This document shows, in pieces, positions 1 to 4,898 of a DNA stretch of 4,898 nt; the first letter of the stretch is position 1, and each line of letters opens with the position of its first letter. This stretch comes from a virus (taxonomy: Duplodnaviria > Heunggongvirae > Uroviricota > Caudoviricetes). The position numbers were made by a program, and so were the translations under genes. The notes beneath the pieces are model-generated. The model did no database searches and was not told where the DNA came from. It saw only the letters and a list, made by a program, of their open reading frames with translations. The DNA lies in the IMG/VR virus record IMGVR_UViG_2534681628_000018; one strand, 5' to 3'.

Positions 1-1
1 T

Positions 2-169
2 CGCGATGTACGCACAATCGTTGAGCTGGGAAAAACAATCGACTTTGATGCCAGAATCGTTATTCCATTTGAAGGCGTGCGCCACAATGCGCTGGATGAT
101 GCCCGTCACCAGGCAAAATACGTTTCAGCAATCTGGCAAAAACTGATCCCGAATCCGGTTGATTTTTAA
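2..169 (+). CDS. C-terminal fragment of a DnaQ-like (DEDDh) 3'-5' exonuclease; 5' end lies outside the window
   Basis: Frame is open from the window edge to TAA at 167-169 and translates to RDVRTIVELGKTIDFDARIVIPFEGVRHNALDDARHQAKYVSAIWQKLIPNPVDF. The segment H-N-A-L-D-D-A...Y fits the Exo III motif (H-x-A-x-x-D-A) of DnaQ/RNase T/ExoX-type exonucleases. Not in the ORF track because it contains no start codon. Only 55 residues are visible. Confidence 0.45.
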   Translation, partial: RDVRTIVELGKTIDFDARIVIPFEGVRHNALDDARHQAKYVSAIWQKLIPNPVDF

Positions 170-235
170 TGTTCAACCCTGATCGCCGTCCCCGAATTAT
201 ATTGGCGGCGGTCATGCTGTAAGGCACGTGACCAC

Positions 236-487
236 ATGTACGAATTAACTCTATCGCCAGCAGAGATTCAAGAGATCACGAAATACGAGCGATACACAAA
301 ACAGCAACACCAGTTAAGGCTGCACGGTATCCCATTTGTAATCGGTCCTAAAAACGAACCAATAGTTCTTCGCAGGGATATTCCACACGGACTGACTACG
401 ATGCCAAAAGCACCTGAACTGGTTTCCGCTGAACCCGATTTTGAGGCGCTGAACAATGGGAAGACCAAGAAAAAACAAAAAAGATAA
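236..487 (+). CDS. xis: Excisionase (lambda Xis-like recombination directionality factor), 83 aa
   Basis: Small ORF immediately upstream of and overlapping int. The N-terminus MYELTL resembles lambda Xis (MYLTLQEW...), and the basic C-terminal tail NNGKTKKKQKR resembles lambda's ...RNGKKAKS. ATG at 236 is the only start in this frame after the upstream stop at 167-169; AAGG lies about 12 nt upstream. Confidence 0.65.
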   Translation: MYELTLSPAEIQEITKYERYTKQQHQLRLHGIPFVIGPKNEPIVLRRDIPHGLTTMPKAPELVSAEPDFEALNNGKTKKKQKR

Positions 488-1475
488 TGCACTACCACCG
501 CGTGTTAGATCGAATGGTTACAGTTACGTATGGAAACCCGAAGGAAGCACAAGAACTATAGGGCTCGGAAGAGTGCGGGAAACCAGCATAGCTAAAGTCT
601 GGCAAAATTATGAGCTGGAAAAAGCAAAACTCCACAACATAATGACAGTAGCTAAATTATGGCACATGTTTATGGACTCCCCTGCATTTACAGAACTGGC
701 CCCCCGAACCCAAAAAGATTATCGGCAACATCAAAGGGCATTGTTGGCAGTATTCGGAAAAGTGCTTGCTGATAATGTAAAAATTGAACAGGTAAGAATT
801 TTCATGGATAAGCGAGGACTTGAGAGCAAGACCCAGGCAAACCATGAACTGGCAAGTCTGAGCCGTATATACGGATGGGGATACGAGCGTGGGTATGTAA
901 AAAATAATCCATGCAAAGGAGTCAGAAAATTCACACTTAAAGCCCGTACTGTTTACATCACCGATGAACAGTATGCTGCAATATATGCGGAAGCAATTCC
1001 ACAGTTATGTATTGCAATGGAGATATCCTATCTTTGTGCGGCAAGGCTCGGTGATGTACTCGAGCTGAAATGGCAGGATATTATGGATAAAGGGATTTAC
1101 ATTGAGCAAAACAAGACTGGCACTAAACAAATCAAGGAATGGTCTCCGCGATTACGTACGGCGATCCAGTTAGCCCGAAATGTATCTTCCGGCACATGCG
1201 AGTATGTGATCAACACAACCAAAGGCGAGAAGGTAATAGCCAAGACGCTGAACAACTGGTGGAATCAGGCTAAACGTGCAGCCGAGCAAAAAGCCGGCGT
1301 TCCGTTTGGATGCAACTTCCATGACATAAAAGCCAAAGGGATTTCAGATTACGAAGGCAGCAGTCGCGACAAACAAATTTTCAGTGGACACAAAACAGAA
1401 AATCAGGTGTTGATTTACGATCGTAAAACCAAAATCACCCCAACACTGGATTTGCCGCTTGTGGTCAGTAAGTAG
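456..1475 (+). CDS. int: Site-specific tyrosine recombinase, lambda Int family, 339 aa
   Basis: N-terminus MGRPRKNKKDNALPPRVRSNGYSYVWKPEG...GLGRVRE parallels the lambda/HK022 Int arm-binding domain (MGRRRSHERRDLPPNLYIRNNGYY...GLGRDRR). Catalytic-domain landmarks align by eye: AARLGDVLELKWQDI (Arg I), IEQNKTGTK (Lys), FHDIK (box II His), GHK (His), VLIYDRK (Tyr nucleophile). First in-frame ATG after the stop at 450-452; TAG stop at 1473-1475. Confidence 0.92.
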   Translation: MGRPRKNKKDNALPPRVRSNGYSYVWKPEGSTRTIGLGRVRETSIAKVWQNYELEKAKLHNIMTVAKLWHMFMDSPAFTELAPRTQKDYRQHQRALLAVFGKVLADNVKIEQVRIFMDKRGLESKTQANHELASLSRIYGWGYERGYVKNNPCKGVRKFTLKARTVYITDEQYAAIYAEAIPQLCIAMEISYLCAARLGDVLELKWQDIMDKGIYIEQNKTGTKQIKEWSPRLRTAIQLARNVSSGTCEYVINTTKGEKVIAKTLNNWWNQAKRAAEQKAGVPFGCNFHDIKAKGISDYEGSSRDKQIFSGHKTENQVLIYDRKTKITPTLDLPLVVSK

Positions 1476-1480
1476 GCAAT

Positions 1481-1496
1481 CCAGAAAATTTTCTGG
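1481..1496. other. Perfect 16-bp palindrome CCAGAAAATTTTCTGG, 5 nt downstream of the int stop
   Basis: Read directly from the sequence; self-complementary. No T-run follows on either strand, so more likely a protein-binding site or RNA stem than an intrinsic terminator. Confidence 0.3.
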
Positions 1497-1503
1497 CAAA
1501 AAG

Positions 1504-1513
1504 ACTTGGTATA
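1504..1513 (+). repeat. Candidate integrase arm-type site ACTTGGTATA (int-proximal arm)
   Basis: The same 10-mer recurs at 1733-1742 on the other side of the att core, and TTGGTATATT (1506-1515) recurs at 1747-1756. A degenerate copy CTTGGTGTT lies at 1549-1557. Confidence 0.4.
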
Positions 1514-1616
1514 TTAACTCTGAATAGCTCCCTAATATCTTGATTTTTCTTGGTGTTAGGTCTGATTAACTTTTCAGCTATTTTGCGTATTGCACTGATT
1601 TTTCTTTATTTTTCTT

Positions 1617-1676
1617 CGGTCTTGAAAACCGGCGACCCGAAAGGGTTCCAGAGTTCGAATCTCTGCGCTTCCGCCA
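1617..1676 (+). other. att core: 3'-terminal 60 nt of a tRNA-Ser(UGA) gene (serT-type), from the anticodon stem through the CCA end; not a complete tRNA
   Basis: CGGTCTTGAAAACCGGCGACCCGAAAGGGTTCCAGAGTTCGAATCTCTGCGCTTCCGCCA matches the 3' part of E. coli tRNA-Ser(UGA) as I recall it: anticodon loop CUUGAAA, long variable arm, T-arm CAGAG/TTCGAAT/CTCTG, acceptor 3' strand CGCTTCC, discriminator G, CCA. The required 5' acceptor strand GGAAGCG and D-arm are absent from the ~30 nt upstream (1587-1616 is AT-rich and unrelated). Confidence 0.85.
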
Positions 1677-1684
1677 AATAATCA

Positions 1685-1718
1685 AGGGGTTACAAAATGG
1701 TAGCCCCTTTGCTTTTTT
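1685..1718 (+). terminator. Rho-independent terminator directly downstream of the tRNA-Ser fragment; possibly bidirectional
   Basis: Stem AGGGGTTAC (1685-1693) pairs with GTAGCCCCT (1700-1708), 9 bp with one G-U pair, loop AAAATG, followed by TTGCTTTTTT (1709-1718). On the minus strand the same hairpin is followed by a weaker U-rich stretch (TGATTATTTGG), so it could also end the tfa/stf transcript. Confidence 0.6.
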
Positions 1719-1817: not shown

Positions 1818-2402
1818 TCAAGGTTTTTCTGAGCTAACGACCAGTTTCCTGATTGAACCCAAATCCTCCAGATTATTCAGTTCTTCCTTCATCTCCCGCT
1901 GACGTCGATAAATCTCGTCATTGCGATCGAGCTGCGCCTGCGCCATTGCTGCCGCCAGTTCTTCCAGTTCCGGCATTGACAGTTTCACCTGTTGATTATC
2001 GGCATCACCCCATGCAAGGGCGGTTCGTGCCGTATCGGATTTCGCCGCCATTACTACCGGATAAAGACGGGCCATTGAGTCGGGGCCAGCGTTCCAGGTG
2101 CGACCGTTCCATTCAAAGGTGAACGGCAGTGCTTCCTGTTCTGTGCGCCATGCCTCGATTTCCTGCTTTTTGGCATCCTTCGCCGCGGCGATAAGTTCCG
2201 GCGTGACAGTGAAAGGGGCGATTTCGCCCCATTTGCCGTTCTGCAACTCTTCCCAGATGCGCTGGCCTGTCGGTGCGGTATCATCCTGCATGGCGGTATA
2301 CGGGACGAATTCCGTTTCACCTTCAAATAACACCTCGCAGTCAACCGCACCATTTTCAAGATAATGGGCGTTTCTGATGCCCTTTACCGCTCTGATTTTC
2401 AT
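1818..2402 (-). CDS. tfa: Tail fibre assembly / tail fibre chaperone-like protein, 194 aa
   Basis: Begins 13 nt downstream of the stf stop on the same strand, with GGGGAA about 8 nt upstream of its ATG (minus-strand reading TAA-CGGGGAATAAAAC-ATG). Same length as lambda Tfa (194 aa) and shares a central W-N-G-x-x-W segment (FTFEWNGRTWNAG vs lambda EYQKWNGTAWVKD). The C-terminal half is not obviously lambda-Tfa-like, so the assignment rests mainly on synteny. Confidence 0.6.
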   Translation of the reverse strand: MKIRAVKGIRNAHYLENGAVDCEVLFEGETEFVPYTAMQDDTAPTGQRIWEELQNGKWGEIAPFTVTPELIAAAKDAKKQEIEAWRTEQEALPFTFEWNGRTWNAGPDSMARLYPVVMAAKSDTARTALAWGDADNQQVKLSMPELEELAAAMAQAQLDRNDEIYRRQREMKEELNNLEDLGSIRKLVVSSEKP

Positions 2403-2415
2403 GTTTTATTCCCCG

Positions 2416-4898
2416 TTACTCGATGCGCACAAACAGGCAGATACGACCGGTTATTCCTTTAGAGTCCCTGACCCCGGATAGCGCCATATAACGCCCCGGG
2501 AAAGTGTACCCTGTAGCTCCTGCACTCGGTGCGGAATTGTAGGAGCCAACCCCAGCAGAAGATATTAAGCACGAAAGATTAACTCCGCCCAGTTGTGACC
2601 CCTGCACCACATCACCCAGGCCAATATTGATTTCTTTATCCCCGGAAGTTGTTCCGCGATAAACAGCCAGCACTGGAACACCCACTGCCGGGTATTTGAA
2701 ATATGAGCCTGAGCCTGCTGTCCGGGACAGTAAGAACGCCAGCGAATCGCCGTCGTAAATAATGGGGCTTACTGTTGCATTCCAGTTGTTTCCACTCCAG
2801 CGGTAAGTCAGGCGATGAATACTGTGCTCACCTTCGTAATACTGGTTAAAACACAGCAGCGTTTTGAATTTACGCACTGTGTCTGACTCGTCGTTATCAA
2901 AGGGTGACCACATCACATCAATGATGCCGTTAAATTTCGTTGTGCCAGCCAGCAGCATGGAAGAGTCCGCAATACTGACCGCATAACGCCCCGGGGCGGC
3001 CTTTTTCAGCCATTCAACAAAATCGGCCTGCCCGTTAAATGTCAGAGCGTCGGCACTGGTGAATGCCTGACCGAATCCATGCATGCCGGACAGTGCCAGT
3101 CTGCCCGGTGTGCGGTCGCGGATATCGCTCTGGGGTTCCATCGTCGCAGCCGCTTTCAGTTCAAGCTCCGTGCGCATGGCTTCAGGCGTGTTTCGTGCCA
3201 GTAATGAGCGAGCCTTGTTGCTGCATGGAATTGCTTTTGCTTTAAAGTTATCACCAAAATAAAGGAGAGAGTTTTGTCCCACCCCTGCCTTGCTGATACT
3301 GGTTAACGTATCGTTAAGCGGCTGTTTACCTGCCAGTGCATTAGTGACGGTTGTCGCAAAGTTCGGGTCATTGCCCAGTGCCGCTGCCAGCTCGTTCAGC
3401 GTGTCCAGGGCTTCCGGTGATGAGCCAACCAGTGCGGCGAGCAGTTTGCGCACAAACGCCGCATTGGCTATTTCAGTGCCTGCTGCATCATCCTGTGGTG
3501 TTGGCGTGGACGGCGTTCCGGTCAGTGCCGGGCTGTTCAGTGGCGCTCGGGTTTCAATCAGTGCCCGGAGTGAAGCCTCGTTGACTTTCAGGTTTTCCCA
3601 GCCAACCAGATAACCACCTCCGGTAGTCCAGTAGCGATTGTAATAAATATGACCGTTAATACCGTAAAAAATAATGATTTTGGCCACATATGCCGTATCA
3701 TGGCTGATTTGAGGTTCCGGCCAGATAATTTCAACGGTACCCTTGAACAGCACGCCCTGTATTACCGCATTTGTATCTGCATAAACGGCATAGCGTCCGG
3801 GATTTGCCGTTTTTACCCAGCGGAGAAAATCGGCCTCTGTTTTAAACTCGGTCCTGTCGCCGATGAAAAATACTTTCCCGAATCCAAACATGCCGGGAAT
3901 CGCCAGACGGCCTTCGGTGCGGTCGTAAATATTCTCCTGCGCATCCTTCTGTGCTGCATTGCCAAGTTGTGGCGTCAGATTCGTCCAGGTGACCGGGGCG
4001 GAGATATTATCGCCACGAACGGTCATAAGAATCCGTCCGTCTTTTCCAAAAAACAGAACCAGCTTTGTTGCTGTCTGGCTGGTTTTGTCGGCCCGGCCAT
4101 TATCCAGCCAGATAATTTCTGTTATCCCGGTTGTTTCTTCCGTTCGTGTGGCAAAGGTGTAATAGCGTCCCGGGTGCAGGTTGTGAGCGGTTCTGGCTAC
4201 AGTCGCCATATCGCTGGCAATAATTGAACGCGCTCCGGCGTCCGTCATTCCGTAACCATACGCACCGGGAAGCGCAATGCGGCCTTTCGTGCTGTCGTGA
4301 ATGTCTGTCTGAATATCCATTACCGCTGCGCTTTTCAGCTCAAGCTCATTGCGCATAGCTTCCACTGTGGCCTGTGCCAGCAGTGACCGGGCTTTTTCTG
4401 ACAGTGGAGACAGTGAAGCATTTCCGTCCTGATTAAAGCACAGAAGATTATCTGCCCGTTCTTCCAGATTACTGATTGCGGTTAACACGTCACTGAGTGG
4501 CTGTTTACCTGCCAGTGCTTTGGTGACTGTCGTCGCAAAATTCGGGTCATTTCCCAGCGCCGCTGCCAGCTCGTTCAGCGTGTCCAGGGCTTCCGGTGAC
4601 GAGTCAACCAGTGCAGCGAGCAGTTTGCGGACAAATGCCGCGTTCGCTGTTTCCAGACCGGCAGCATCGTCCGGTGGGGTTGGTGTGGTGGGCGTGCCGG
4701 TGAATGCCGGGCTGTCCAGCGGCGCTTTTGTTTTCGTCTCGTCCATGACGGTTTTGACGGCCTTCGGTGTGGCTGCCAGTTCTTCGCTGTCGTTGTCCGT
4801 ATCACTACAGAGTTGCACCAGGCCTTTTTCTGTCGTGGAAGCACTGCTTCCCTTCAGGTCATCAACTATCCGTTGCGCCTCGTCCCTGTGCTGTTTTG
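2416..4898 (-). CDS. stf: Side tail fibre protein (lambda Stf-like), C-terminal ~827 codons; N-terminus lies beyond the window edge
   Basis: The ORF track starts it at a GTG (4818), but the frame carries no stop in the codons from 4896 down to 4819 (...KQHRDEAQRIVDDLKGSSASTTEKGLVQLCSDTDNDSEELAATPKAVK). This continues the match to the conserved lambda Stf segment (...RKGIVQLSSATNSTSETLAATPKAVKVVMDETNRKAPLDSPALTGTP...NTLNELAAALGNDPDFATTMTNALAGKQP). TAA stop at 2416-2418. Confidence 0.9.
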   Translation of the reverse strand, partial: KQHRDEAQRIVDDLKGSSASTTEKGLVQLCSDTDNDSEELAATPKAVKTVMDETKTKAPLDSPAFTGTPTTPTPPDDAAGLETANAAFVRKLLAALVDSSPEALDTLNELAAALGNDPNFATTVTKALAGKQPLSDVLTAISNLEERADNLLCFNQDGNASLSPLSEKARSLLAQATVEAMRNELELKSAAVMDIQTDIHDSTKGRIALPGAYGYGMTDAGARSIIASDMATVARTAHNLHPGRYYTFATRTEETTGITEIIWLDNGRADKTSQTATKLVLFFGKDGRILMTVRGDNISAPVTWTNLTPQLGNAAQKDAQENIYDRTEGRLAIPGMFGFGKVFFIGDRTEFKTEADFLRWVKTANPGRYAVYADTNAVIQGVLFKGTVEIIWPEPQISHDTAYVAKIIIFYGINGHIYYNRYWTTGGGYLVGWENLKVNEASLRALIETRAPLNSPALTGTPSTPTPQDDAAGTEIANAAFVRKLLAALVGSSPEALDTLNELAAALGNDPNFATTVTNALAGKQPLNDTLTSISKAGVGQNSLLYFGDNFKAKAIPCSNKARSLLARNTPEAMRTELELKAAATMEPQSDIRDRTPGRLALSGMHGFGQAFTSADALTFNGQADFVEWLKKAAPGRYAVSIADSSMLLAGTTKFNGIIDVMWSPFDNDESDTVRKFKTLLCFNQYYEGEHSIHRLTYRWSGNNWNATVSPIIYDGDSLAFLLSRTAGSGSYFKYPAVGVPVLAVYRGTTSGDKEINIGLGDVVQGSQLGGVNLSCLISSAGVGSYNSAPSAGATGYTFPGRYMALSGVRDSKGITGRICLFVRIE
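3302..3547. repeat. Intragenic direct repeat, copy A (~246 bp), encoding the second copy of the conserved Stf collar segment
   Basis: Aligns without gaps to 4481-4726 at roughly 80-85% identity by hand count, including a 41-bp perfect match (3380-3420 = 4559-4599, GCCGCTGCCAGCTCGTTCAGCGTGTCCAGGGCTTCCGGTGA). Confidence 0.85.
4481..4726. repeat. Intragenic direct repeat, copy B (~246 bp), encoding the first copy of the conserved Stf collar segment
   Basis: See copy A. The copies lie 1,179 bp apart, an exact multiple of three, so they are in the same reading frame and orientation. Confidence 0.85.

Follow-up and report, generated by a model that had tools for sequence, protein, structure and literature searches.

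The tail-fibre gene in the 4,898-nt stretch of prophage DNA analysed here (the window) probably encodes a stacked two-cassette fibre, in which the collars that open the two cassettes are in-frame direct repeats whose exchange removes the intervening part of the gene, namely linker 1 and the domains D1 and D2. We put the probability of this reading at roughly four in five. It draws on the anatomy of the gene, on the distribution of long and short forms among its relatives and, principally, on three pairs of nearly identical long and short genes whose junctions fall within or beside the longest perfect block shared by the two collars. The evidence of these pairs is comparative and comes from other genomes than that of the window's strain.

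Two collar-headed cassettes in a prophage tail fibre

The fibre gene occupies positions 2416-4898 on the minus strand, where its frame is open from 4896 down to a stop codon at 2416-2418. The window holds the 3' 826 codons; the 5' end is lost at the contig end, and full-length relatives are 1032-1087 aa long. Besides the open frame, the fragment has a match to PF03406 (Phage_fiber_2) at aa 20-59 (E = 8.6e-16; 57.7 bits against a cut-off of 22) and matches to 45 PHROG tail-fibre families. All full-length relatives at 83-98% identity, including a 98% identical protein of 1086 aa (P0002), have the PF08400 N-terminal domain. The same region of the window gene lies beyond the contig end, and the complete gene very likely carries this domain as well. 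The gene is an E. coli prophage tail fibre, very probably of Stf type (a 'prophage tail fiber N-terminal domain-containing protein', PF08400 plus PF03406).

Directly 3' of the fibre gene, in the window and in every relative examined, lies a gene specifying a DUF4376 protein of 194 aa (1818-2402, minus strand; PF14301, E = 1.6e-16; phrog_1141 'tail fiber protein', E = 8e-90), which is the position of a tail-fibre assembly protein or chaperone. In relatives the fibre gene closes a tail-gene cluster and is preceded by baseplate J/tail protein/Caudo_TAP genes or by gpJ-Lom, and some relatives are Mu-like, with com and mom adjoining the fibre genes. Outside the repeat, the window also contains the 3' 60 nt of a tRNA-Ser gene as an attachment-site copy (1617-1676, plus strand), identical to the final 60 nt of a tRNA-Ser gene in E. 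coli A36 that is 88 nt long. Here the fibre-bearing prophage meets the integrase-bearing element. ARAGORN found no whole tRNA in the window.

The fibre is laid out as collar 1, linker 1, D1 and D2, followed by collar 2, linker 2, D3 and the tip, with each collar of ~89 aa starting a distal cassette that continues with a linker and one or more D domains of ~130 aa. Collar 1, the proximal copy (aa 55-143; 4468-4734), leads into module A (aa 144-447; 3556-4467), in which protein self-comparison places linker 1, D1 (about 3982-4341) and D2 (3556-3981), and which is absent in natural short forms. Collar 2, the distal copy (aa 448-536; 3289-3555), is followed by linker 2 and D3 (aa 537-700; 2797-3288) and by the C-terminal tip (aa 701-826; 2419-2796), the most variable part in relatives (53-98% identity); all of these features are on the minus strand. 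Linker 2 and D3 are paralogous to linker 1 and D1 (37% identity, E = 2e-25) and also match D2 (40% identity, E = 8e-23). Both collars follow a unit of about 74-89 aa (APLxSPxxTGxPTxPT ... IANxAFV ... P(E/G)xLDTLxE(L/I)AAA ... NDPN(F/Y)xTT ... NALAxK), and the Stf peptide motif quoted by a sequence-only reading of this DNA is likewise matched by both encoded peptides. Fibres with cassette A alone (L022, L030 and L031) and with cassette B alone (L003-L005, L038 and L040) exist, which supports the origin that the same reading had offered as an alternative, a fusion of two fibre genes in their distal regions. A profile of 11 D domains returned nothing credible from the PDB (best E = 0.014, for a 17-residue motif of an LHCI protein) and nothing from Pfam. 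AlphaFold2 monomer modelling, from an alignment of 25 sequences in each case, gave unusable results for module A (aa 144-447; mean pLDDT 44.3) and for module B (aa 537-826; mean pLDDT 45.6). The roles of the collars and the D domains discussed below are putative.

At the DNA level, a repeat search returned a single direct-repeat family in the window, made up of 3290-3554 within collar 2 and 4469-4733 within collar 1. The copies are 265 nt long and identical at 219 of 265 positions (83%), and their start-to-start spacing of 1179 nt (3 x 393) keeps them in frame. Two direct repeats had been noted before, and are borne out on the minus strand at a slightly greater length. They had been called tandem and 1,179 apart, of which the in-frame, start-to-start distance stands; the copies are not adjacent, having 914 nt between them. 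The longest perfect run between the copies, by our base-by-base count, is 41 nt, at 4559-4599 in copy 1, where it encodes SSPEALDTLNELAA, and at 3380-3420 in copy 2 (both minus strand), in exact agreement with the 41-bp perfect core reported from the sequence-only reading. The protein-level duplication is far longer than the DNA repeat, pairing aa 55-281 with aa 448-683 at 54% identity (E = 5e-74).

The two copies align over 87 codons, of which 49 are the same, 26 carry synonymous differences and 12 carry non-synonymous ones. A run of at least 41 nt has P = 0.009 with 46 mismatches placed at random; the mismatches are unevenly spread, and the run spans the most conserved peptide, SSPEALDTLNELAAA. 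Among solved structures, the core peptide of the collar finds a match in chain 9d93 ('tail collar fibers, gp4'; E = 4e-10), and the core also matches hundreds of actinobacteriophage tail genes at the DNA level. The 41-nt core is real yet typical of the family and not special to this gene, because the longest perfect runs in 22 related genes range from 17 to 68 nt; these runs lie in or beside the central part in all except 3 genes. The collar pairs of 22 relatives are 76-83% identical, with 8 fixed differences between collar 1 and collar 2.

Several ways in which such copies might be kept alike or diversified were considered and rejected. Continuing gene conversion between the collars fails in that within-gene copies are no more alike than between-gene copies in any segment (permutation P 0.45-0.72), and for this reason there is no sign of ongoing exchange within the gene short of deletion. 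About 32 shared polymorphisms do point to older exchange among the collar pools. A diversity-generating retroelement is at odds with mismatches that fall on all four bases in both copies (48 in total; in copy 1, A 13, C 15, G 10, T 10), 32 of them at third codon positions, and no reverse transcriptase was found in the window. A fibre switch of the Gin/Cin/Min kind was dismissed on three grounds: the repeats are direct, there is no invertase in the window and none annotated beside the fibre genes in the related loci read, and proper inverted crossover sites are missing, the inverted repeats of the window being short, imperfect pairs of 14-20 nt at chance level.

Long and short forms among relatives

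The long form, with two cores, occurred in 118 of 240 retrieved protein clusters, and the named phage Rac-SA53 has it as well. In the best 120 clusters, from E. coli, E. marmotae, E. albertii and Salmonella, the long architecture extends over 100% of the query at 83-100% identity; of 5426 complete E. coli genomes, 32 contain module A at a coverage of at least 80%. In the 118 clusters the two cassettes are a fixed and diverged arrangement.

A one-cassette short form, with one core and one D domain, makes up about 105 of the 240 clusters, and long and short proteins fall into length classes offset by 393 aa (1044/651, 1047/654 and 1035/642). A crossover made in silico between the two cores leaves an open, in-frame gene, and the resulting deletion junction has an ungapped match in 24 of the 5426 complete E. 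coli genomes. Intact short genes in complete assemblies include those of SC418 (654 aa), C311 (759 aa) and the plasmid pCFSAN004178P_01 (749 aa). The expectation that recombination from core to core would give a shorter in-frame fibre is upheld both by the in-silico frame and by natural genes of exactly that structure, which are common.

All five short forms examined have a chimeric collar, of collar-1 type at its 5' end and of collar-2 type at its 3' end (diagnostic sites 1111...2222), and in these five collars the type switches between collar columns 99 and 212. Moreover, each short form has flanks that resemble those of long forms more closely than those of other short forms.

Three near-isogenic pairs of a long and a short gene locate the exchange more closely; each pair is 99.9% identical on both sides of the indel, and the module lost amounts to 391-394 residues. 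In the first (L040, short, and L014, long), an indel of 1179 nt separates flanks that are almost identical, with 1 mismatch across 2915 nt 5' of it and 1 across 1552 nt 3' of it. The exchange lies at columns 178-182, beside a 45-nt perfect block, and the short gene reads as collar 1 at column 177 but as collar 2 at column 183, an allele combination missing from its long partner. The second pair (L045, short, and L046, long) differs by an indel of 1182 nt, with the exchange within the 41-nt perfect block at columns 142-182. In the third pair (L043, short, and L044, long), the indel is 1173 nt and the last switch falls within a 38-nt perfect block at columns 148-185, upstream of which the collar is a patchy mosaic. 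Between any two of the three short genes the difference is 9-13%, and the events are therefore independent. All short members are from draft assemblies (ERR14043493, GCA_002965345.1 and GCA_036176945.1; Logan for L040, NCBI for L043 and L045), as are two of the long partners; the short-form contigs are 88-383 kb long, L046 lies on a contig of 4.97 Mb, and the short protein of the first pair is found on 7 contigs from several samples and sources.

Because these three near-identical pairs map the crossovers within or beside the longest perfect block, they argue that deletion from collar to collar does occur in nature, and repeatedly. We found no deletion derivative from the window's own lineage: the nearest short form shares 96% protein identity with the window gene, and its DNA identity is 95.2% on one side and 91.6% on the other.

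Proposed exchange between collars and competing explanations

In the mechanism that we propose, the collars would be old, diverged paralogues that are most alike in their central core because the core encodes the most conserved peptide. Lying in direct orientation and in the same frame, they would act as sites of homologous exchange, and a crossover in or beside the core would produce a collar whose 5' half comes from collar 1 and whose 3' half comes from collar 2. Such a crossover would precisely delete the 391-394 codons of linker 1, D1 and D2, and the shorter fibre would keep its tip and assembly gene. A perfect block of 41 nt is probably sufficient for homologous pairing by E. coli or phage recombinases. 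Two hallmarks of recombination-prone direct repeats are seen, with in-frame direct copies that share such a block and, in other genomes, products whose junction lies in the repeat. The reaction may be carried out by RecA or a phage recombinase or may arise from replication slippage between the direct repeats, and it is probably rare and unprogrammed. That its direction is loss, not gain, would follow by parsimony alone.

What the deletion takes away differs from what had been foreseen. The sequence-only reading spoke of a distal module, whereas the part lost is internal (linker 1, D1 and D2), and the C-terminal tip and the DUF4376 gene remain. Nor is the suggested variation in host range implied, because the tip and the adjacent assembly gene are left unchanged by the deletion. 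The main consequence is more plausibly a fibre of altered length, or one that lacks two internal knob domains, with the primary receptor unchanged.

Four other explanations of the two forms have to be weighed against collar-to-collar deletion. The collars could be a static structural feature, one for each cassette, that serves trimer registration or folding without any recombinational role, the short forms then being a separate and older type of gene. Conservation of the long form in 118 clusters fits this account, as do collars that are just 76-83% identical, with 8 fixed differences, and within-gene copies that show no excess similarity; constraint alone can explain the perfect core, given that the core peptide is conserved as far as 9d93 and the actinobacteriophage genes. 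We nevertheless consider it quite improbable in view of three long/short pairs, from three lineages, whose flanks on either side of the indel agree at 99.9%, and of short forms whose flanks are invariably nearer to long forms than to one another. The event might also have run in the reverse direction, from a one-cassette ancestor that gained a collar-flanked module A from another fibre gene in the same cell by cassette stacking. The first long form must have come from such a join. Single-cassette fibres of both kinds exist, modules vary independently in relatives (for example, the tip is 60% identical in L010 and 98% in L011), and E. coli genomes often have several fibre genes of this sort, in up to 12 places per genome. 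As an account of the pairs, however, gain demands two crossovers and a donor with identical flanks of more than 1.5 kb on each side, as against a single intramolecular event for loss, and none of the 240 protein clusters contains three collars or a duplicated module A; we regard it as unlikely.

That intact short forms stand in complete genomes, 24 overall, and in one complete plasmid makes it highly improbable that those of the three pairs are assembly artefacts, in which short-read assemblers would have used the perfect block to pass straight from one collar to the other, leaving module A out. The concern is raised by the draft status of the short loci in all three pairs and by perfect blocks of 38-45 nt, longer than small k-mer sizes such as 31. 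The contigs are nonetheless long (88-383 kb), and in the first pair the short protein recurs on 7 contigs from several samples and sources and its junction cannot stem from a k-mer path, because the allele combination at columns 177 and 183 is absent in the long partner; for the second and third pairs a mis-join across the repeat of 38-45 nt retains a slight residual chance. A programmed device of the contingency type, comparable to Gin/Cin but free of an invertase and selected for generating both fibre forms at an appreciable rate in each phage population, would be in keeping with losses that recur in three lineages, with the similar abundance of the two forms (118 and about 105 clusters; 32 and 24 complete genomes) and with the lack of an invertase beside the fibre genes in the loci read. 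We hold it to be very unlikely all the same: a lineage cannot undo the deletion, the repeats are just about 80% identical and not homogenised, a perfect block that ranges over 17-68 nt is not maintained, the event leaves the distal tip unaltered, and no dedicated recombinase or recombination site was found. There is also an outside chance that the dimorphism is selected as bet-hedging, with deletion at an appreciable rate during induction or lytic growth giving mixed fibre populations. If so, variation in fibre length and in two extra binding knobs (D1 and D2) would shift adsorption or host range without an invertase.

Modular evolution of tail fibres has been established since the early 1990s, and its general picture is unchanged by the collar-to-collar deletion described here, which is an ordinary case of it and not a new kind of switch. 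What the case offers is a clear instance from nature in which a conserved motif within a tail-fibre gene serves as a crossover point, with junctions mapped to a few nucleotides. It also provides, in the collar core, a defined breakpoint for fibre engineering at which cassettes could be added or removed, and it carries a warning to annotators and phage typers that genes of 650 aa and 1045 aa can be one fibre with or without one module.

Comparison with known systems of fibre variation

In the switches of Mu (Gin and the G segment), P1 (Cin and the C segment) and p15B (Min), a serine invertase acts on inverted sites to exchange opposed alternative 3' ends, reversibly and frequently. The collar repeats resemble these systems in that alternative fibre forms come from one locus within related myovirus tail modules; they differ in that the repeats are direct, the deletion runs one way and none of the parts of the switch is present.

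The closest named counterpart of the long architecture is tail3 of Escherichia phage Rac-SA53 (KU052037, 1061 aa), which also shares its gene neighbourhood (tail1, tail2, tail3 and tail4). It is annotated merely as 'tail fiber protein', with the repeat unmentioned. Protein identity to the window fibre is 98% ahead of the first collar, 94% in collar 1, 90% in linker 1 and D1, 73% in D2 and 89% in collar 2, whereas the third D domain is just 52-56% identical and the tip has no detectable similarity.

Recombination at conserved motifs is also described for the T-even long-tail-fibre adhesins gp37 and gp38 (Tetart et al. 1996, 1998, cited in PMC3157838), where, in the account given there, short conserved motifs in hypervariable fibre genes are crossover points at which segments are duplicated, deleted or swapped. 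The genes and motifs of that account are unrelated to ours (His boxes and glycine-rich motifs of about 10-30 nt, in virulent phages), and its events were selected in the laboratory and altered host range, whereas here the evidence is comparative alone and the tip is unaffected. Nearer in kind are the side-tail-fibre genes of E. coli prophages, in which stf of lambda undergoes homologous exchange with the stf genes of the defective prophages Rac and Qin (De Paepe et al. 2014, PMC3945230). These genes have conserved segments of the type seen here and recombine through them; for lambda and Rac, exchange over about 700 bp at 88% identity occurs at about 2e-6 per phage, mostly through Red-beta, and stf exchange depends on Red-beta or RecA (PMC3945230). 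Unlike the deletion proposed here, that exchange is an intermolecular replacement between phage and prophage, and no internal module is deleted between two repeats.

The collar itself has its best-known counterpart in gene S of P1 and P7, whose repeated elements were described by Sandmeier, Iida and Arber (1992) and Sandmeier (1994), both listed among the references of PMC3945230. It corresponds to 'repeated element b' of P1 gpS, of which we took the b1 and b2 annotation from GenBank AF234172 and M81956. Element b2 (aa 327-400, APLASPALTGVPTAPT...SSPEALDTLYELAAALGNDPNFATTMTNALAGK) is 65% identical in protein to collar 1 and 69% to collar 2, b1 is 51-54% identical to the two collars, and the b2 DNA of P1 and P7 gene S is 83-85% identical to collar 2. 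In gene S, too, one fibre gene thus contains two direct copies. In P1, b1 (aa 252-326) runs straight into b2 (aa 327-400) without an intervening module, both of them within the constant part that precedes the invertible segment; the two collars of the window fibre, by contrast, are 304 residues apart and each, without an invertase, opens its own distal cassette.

The fibre gene and its prophage surroundings

Two prophages meet within the 4898-nt window. On the plus strand, the 3' end of an exonuclease gene (identified from the annotation of 98%-identical relatives) is followed by a DUF4224 gene (236-487) and a tyrosine integrase gene (456-1475); 744 complete E. coli genomes contain a prophage end 98% identical to this stretch. 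An attachment-site copy at 1617-1676 consists of the 3'-terminal 60 nt of a tRNA-Ser; ARAGORN found no complete tRNA in the window. The minus strand carries a DUF4376 gene (1818-2402) and the tail-fibre gene, which begins beyond the contig end and has its stop codon at 2416-2418. Over window 1-1700 both prophages join at one tRNA-Ser, the integrase end adjoining the 60-nt 3' copy. The sequence that follows this copy is identical at 193 of 200 positions to that downstream of the intact tRNA-Ser beside hyaA in E. coli A36, in which a fibre-bearing prophage starts at this place.

By comparing the 826-aa fibre fragment with itself and with its relatives, we divided it into a Phage_fiber_2 repeat (PF03406; aa 20-59), collar 1 (aa 55-143), linker 1 and domain D1 (aa 144-305), D2 (aa 306-447), collar 2 (aa 448-536), linker 2 and D3 (aa 537-700), and a C-terminal tip (aa 701-826). 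D1, D2 and D3 (window 3982-4341, 3556-3981 and, with linker 2, 2797-3288) are paralogous domains of ~130 aa that are 33-40% identical and have in common the motifs GR(L/I)A(L/I)PGxxG(F/Y)G and PGRY. In sequence searches the D domain fell into no Pfam family and had no structurally solved relative, and only 85 representative clusters among 1.84 billion proteins matched it, mostly with one to three matched stretches per protein. AlphaFold2 monomer models of both modules were unusable (pLDDT 44-46).

An old, in-frame repeat of a widespread collar motif

A repeat search identified one long direct repeat in the window (3290-3554 and 4469-4733; 265 nt, 83% identity), whose spacing of 1179 nt equals 393 codons and thus places the copies in frame. 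The copies are identical at 219 of 265 positions, with a longest perfect run of 41 nt (3380-3420 = 4559-4599), bearing out the in-frame direct repeats with a 41-bp perfect core claimed from the sequence alone. Among the 87 aligned codons, 49 are the same in both copies, and the others comprise 26 synonymous and 12 non-synonymous differences; across the 267-nt collar, 32 of the 48 mismatches fall at third codon positions, with no base of the four favoured. The copies are not adjacent, however, and the duplication at the protein level (aa 55-281 against 448-683; 54% identity, E = 5e-74) exceeds the DNA repeat. Collar columns are counted so that column n stands for window position 4735-n in collar 1 and for 3556-n in collar 2. 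In the window's collar 1, three diagnostic sites in a row, just distal to the 41-nt core (window 4501-4523; columns 212, 219 and 234), have the collar-2-type base, in contrast to collar 1 of other long forms; a short conversion patch, extending the stretch over which the copies are alike, could account for this.

The two-collar long form is fixed among relatives. Each of the best 120 protein clusters spans 100% of the fragment at 83-100% identity; their full-length proteins measure 1032-1087 aa and come from E. coli, E. marmotae, E. albertii and Salmonella. The tail3 gene of phage Rac-SA53 shares this layout. In 22 long-form genes (18 distinct), collars 1 and 2 are 76-83% identical, and in 19 of the 22 the longest perfect run between them (17-68 nt across the set) falls within or next to the central core. 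Within the core, the distance between paralogues (8.5 differences per 91 nt) is close to that between orthologues (5-7 per 91), and in the flanks paralogues are far more different (27 per 95 nt and 18 per 81 nt). The two collars of one gene resemble each other no more closely than do collars taken from separate genes (P 0.45-0.72), and they show 8 fixed differences and ~32 shared polymorphisms, indicating that the repeat is old and without ongoing homogenisation. This weighs against a special role for the 41-nt core: a fixed, diverged duplication in relatives was part of what the sequence-only reading named as refuting its proposal.

We found the same fibre cassette in three kinds of prophage (fibre loci L038/L039, 3001-4989; L040, 3001-4956; L005 and L008). 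In a lambdoid prophage it occupies the true Stf position, behind gpJ and Lom; in myovirus tail modules it comes after baseplate J / tail protein / Caudo_TAP, and in Mu-like elements it adjoins com and mom; N-terminal variants with or without PF13620 track these contexts. The Mu-like prophage of E. coli ETEC1732, which has a long-form fibre, adjoins a truncated flhA (L008, 1-656), which suggests insertion into this flagellar gene. Many related fibre proteins (P0016, P0021, P0048 and others; matches H17 and H19-H21) are labelled "shikimate transporter" in NCBI, evidently a propagated misannotation.

As a motif, the collar is shared very widely among phage fibres. The fragment matched 45 PHROG families, and most of the best 25 listed had two matched stretches, many at both collars. 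A solved chain, 9d93 ("tail collar fibers, gp4"), resembles the core peptide at E = 4e-10. Core DNA alone matched 472 phage records, including P1, P2 and Klebsiella phages; ~300 were mycobacteriophage records (79-87% identity over ~94 nt, in minor-tail or tail genes). Matches of 79-87% nucleotide identity (window 3346-3439, copy 4525-4618) also occur in Gordonia, Nocardia and Microbacterium phages, a striking DNA-level likeness between phages of Actinobacteria and of Enterobacteria that is probably explained by peptide conservation and GC-rich codons. Gene S of P1 and P7 is 83-85% identical in DNA to collar 2 at the "repeated element b2" annotated in GenBank. Translated P1 gpS has two collar copies side by side, b1 (aa 252-326) and b2 (aa 327-400), each with an identity to the window's collars in the range 51-69%; a fibre gene with two direct collar copies is therefore already annotated in P1.

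Natural short forms and near-isogenic pairs

Recombination in silico across the core left the frame open and encoded a 433-aa fragment. Using window 2901-3420 joined to 4600-4898 as a junction query, we obtained ungapped full-length matches in 24 of 5426 complete E. coli genomes; for comparison, module A (linker 1-D1-D2, 3556-4467) is present at 80% or more in 32 genomes of this set. Intact short genes occur in complete assemblies (SC418, 654 aa, equal to 1047 - 393; C311, 759 aa; plasmid pCFSAN004178P_01, 749 aa), and the lengths of long and short forms fall into classes 393 aa apart. Searching proteins with the in-silico product yielded ~105 clusters that have a single collar core and a single D domain, against 118 two-core clusters from the first protein search. 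Typing at the 26 sites that tell the two collars apart gave collar-1 type to column 99 and collar-2 type from column 212 in each of the five short forms examined. The flanks of short forms are nearer to long forms than to other short forms.

Three pairs with at least 99.4% identity on both sides emerged when every short and long protein was compared over its N-terminal and C-terminal parts. In pair 1 (short L040, Logan ERR14043493, with the same protein on 7 contigs; long L014, IMG/VR), the 5' side (2915 nt) and the 3' side (1552 nt) each differ at a single position, the indel is 1179 nt and the exchange lies at columns 178-182, beside a 45-nt perfect block (132-176). In pair 2 (short L043, Escherichia sp. 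MOD1-EC5950; long L044, E. marmotae; indel 1173 nt), the last switch is within a 38-nt perfect block (148-185), and upstream of it lies an alternating patch of the kind that patchy heteroduplex repair or an unsampled parent would produce. In pair 3 (short L045, long L046; indel 1182 nt), the exchange is within a 41-nt perfect block (142-182). Mapped from columns to window positions, these exchanges fall on or beside the window's own core.

Between the short genes of the three pairs the divergence is 9-13%, so the events are independent. Loss is the simpler direction, as it takes one intramolecular event, whereas gain needs two crossovers with an identically flanked donor. Mis-assembly is unlikely: the junction of the pair-1 short form joins two alleles, 6 nt apart, in a combination absent from the long partner. 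The proposal that deletion yields a shorter in-frame fibre is thus corroborated by natural variants, namely junction matches, chimeric collars and near-isogenic pairs.

Origin of the long gene and consequences of deletion

Cassette A (collar, linker, D1-D2) also exists by itself: one related fibre (L022, 769 aa) has collar-D1-D2 and its own tip, and two others (L030, L031) have collar-D1-Dx-tip. In the fibre of the lytic, rV5-like phage Av-05 (L034), D1 and D2 (60% and 43% identical) again precede a collar-like 5' half (APLYNPNFSGTPTVPTP...IANVDFV) that lacks the LDTLNELAAA core and gives way to an unrelated distal part. Modules also vary independently; tips are 60% (L010) and 98% (L011) identical to the window's in two genes otherwise identical to each other in module comparisons. 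Given the cassette-A-only fibres and this independent variation, the long gene is best explained as a stack of two distal cassettes that recombination brought together. This is the alternative offered by the sequence-only reading, a fusion of two ancestral fibre genes, and it leaves room for the internal cassette to be lost later.

The deletion takes out linker 1-D1-D2 and retains a collar (5' part of collar 1, 3' part of collar 2), D3, the tip and the DUF4376 gene. The distal tip, the usual receptor-binding part of a fibre, is unchanged. The expected effect would be a shorter shaft with two knobs fewer; a change of host range would require that D1 or D2 bind something.

We found no invertase, reverse transcriptase or dedicated recombination site in the window. 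Published measurements give a sense of scale. Exchange between lambda stf and Rac stf, across ~700 bp of 88% identity, occurs at ~2e-6, mostly via Red-beta (PMC3945230), and exchanges in T-even adhesin genes favour conserved motifs, according to PMC3157838, which cites Tetart 1996 and 1998. That receptor-binding proteins are mosaic is amply documented (PMC10684548). Rather than a new switching system, collar-to-collar deletion is a case of the long-known modular, motif-mediated evolution of tail fibres.
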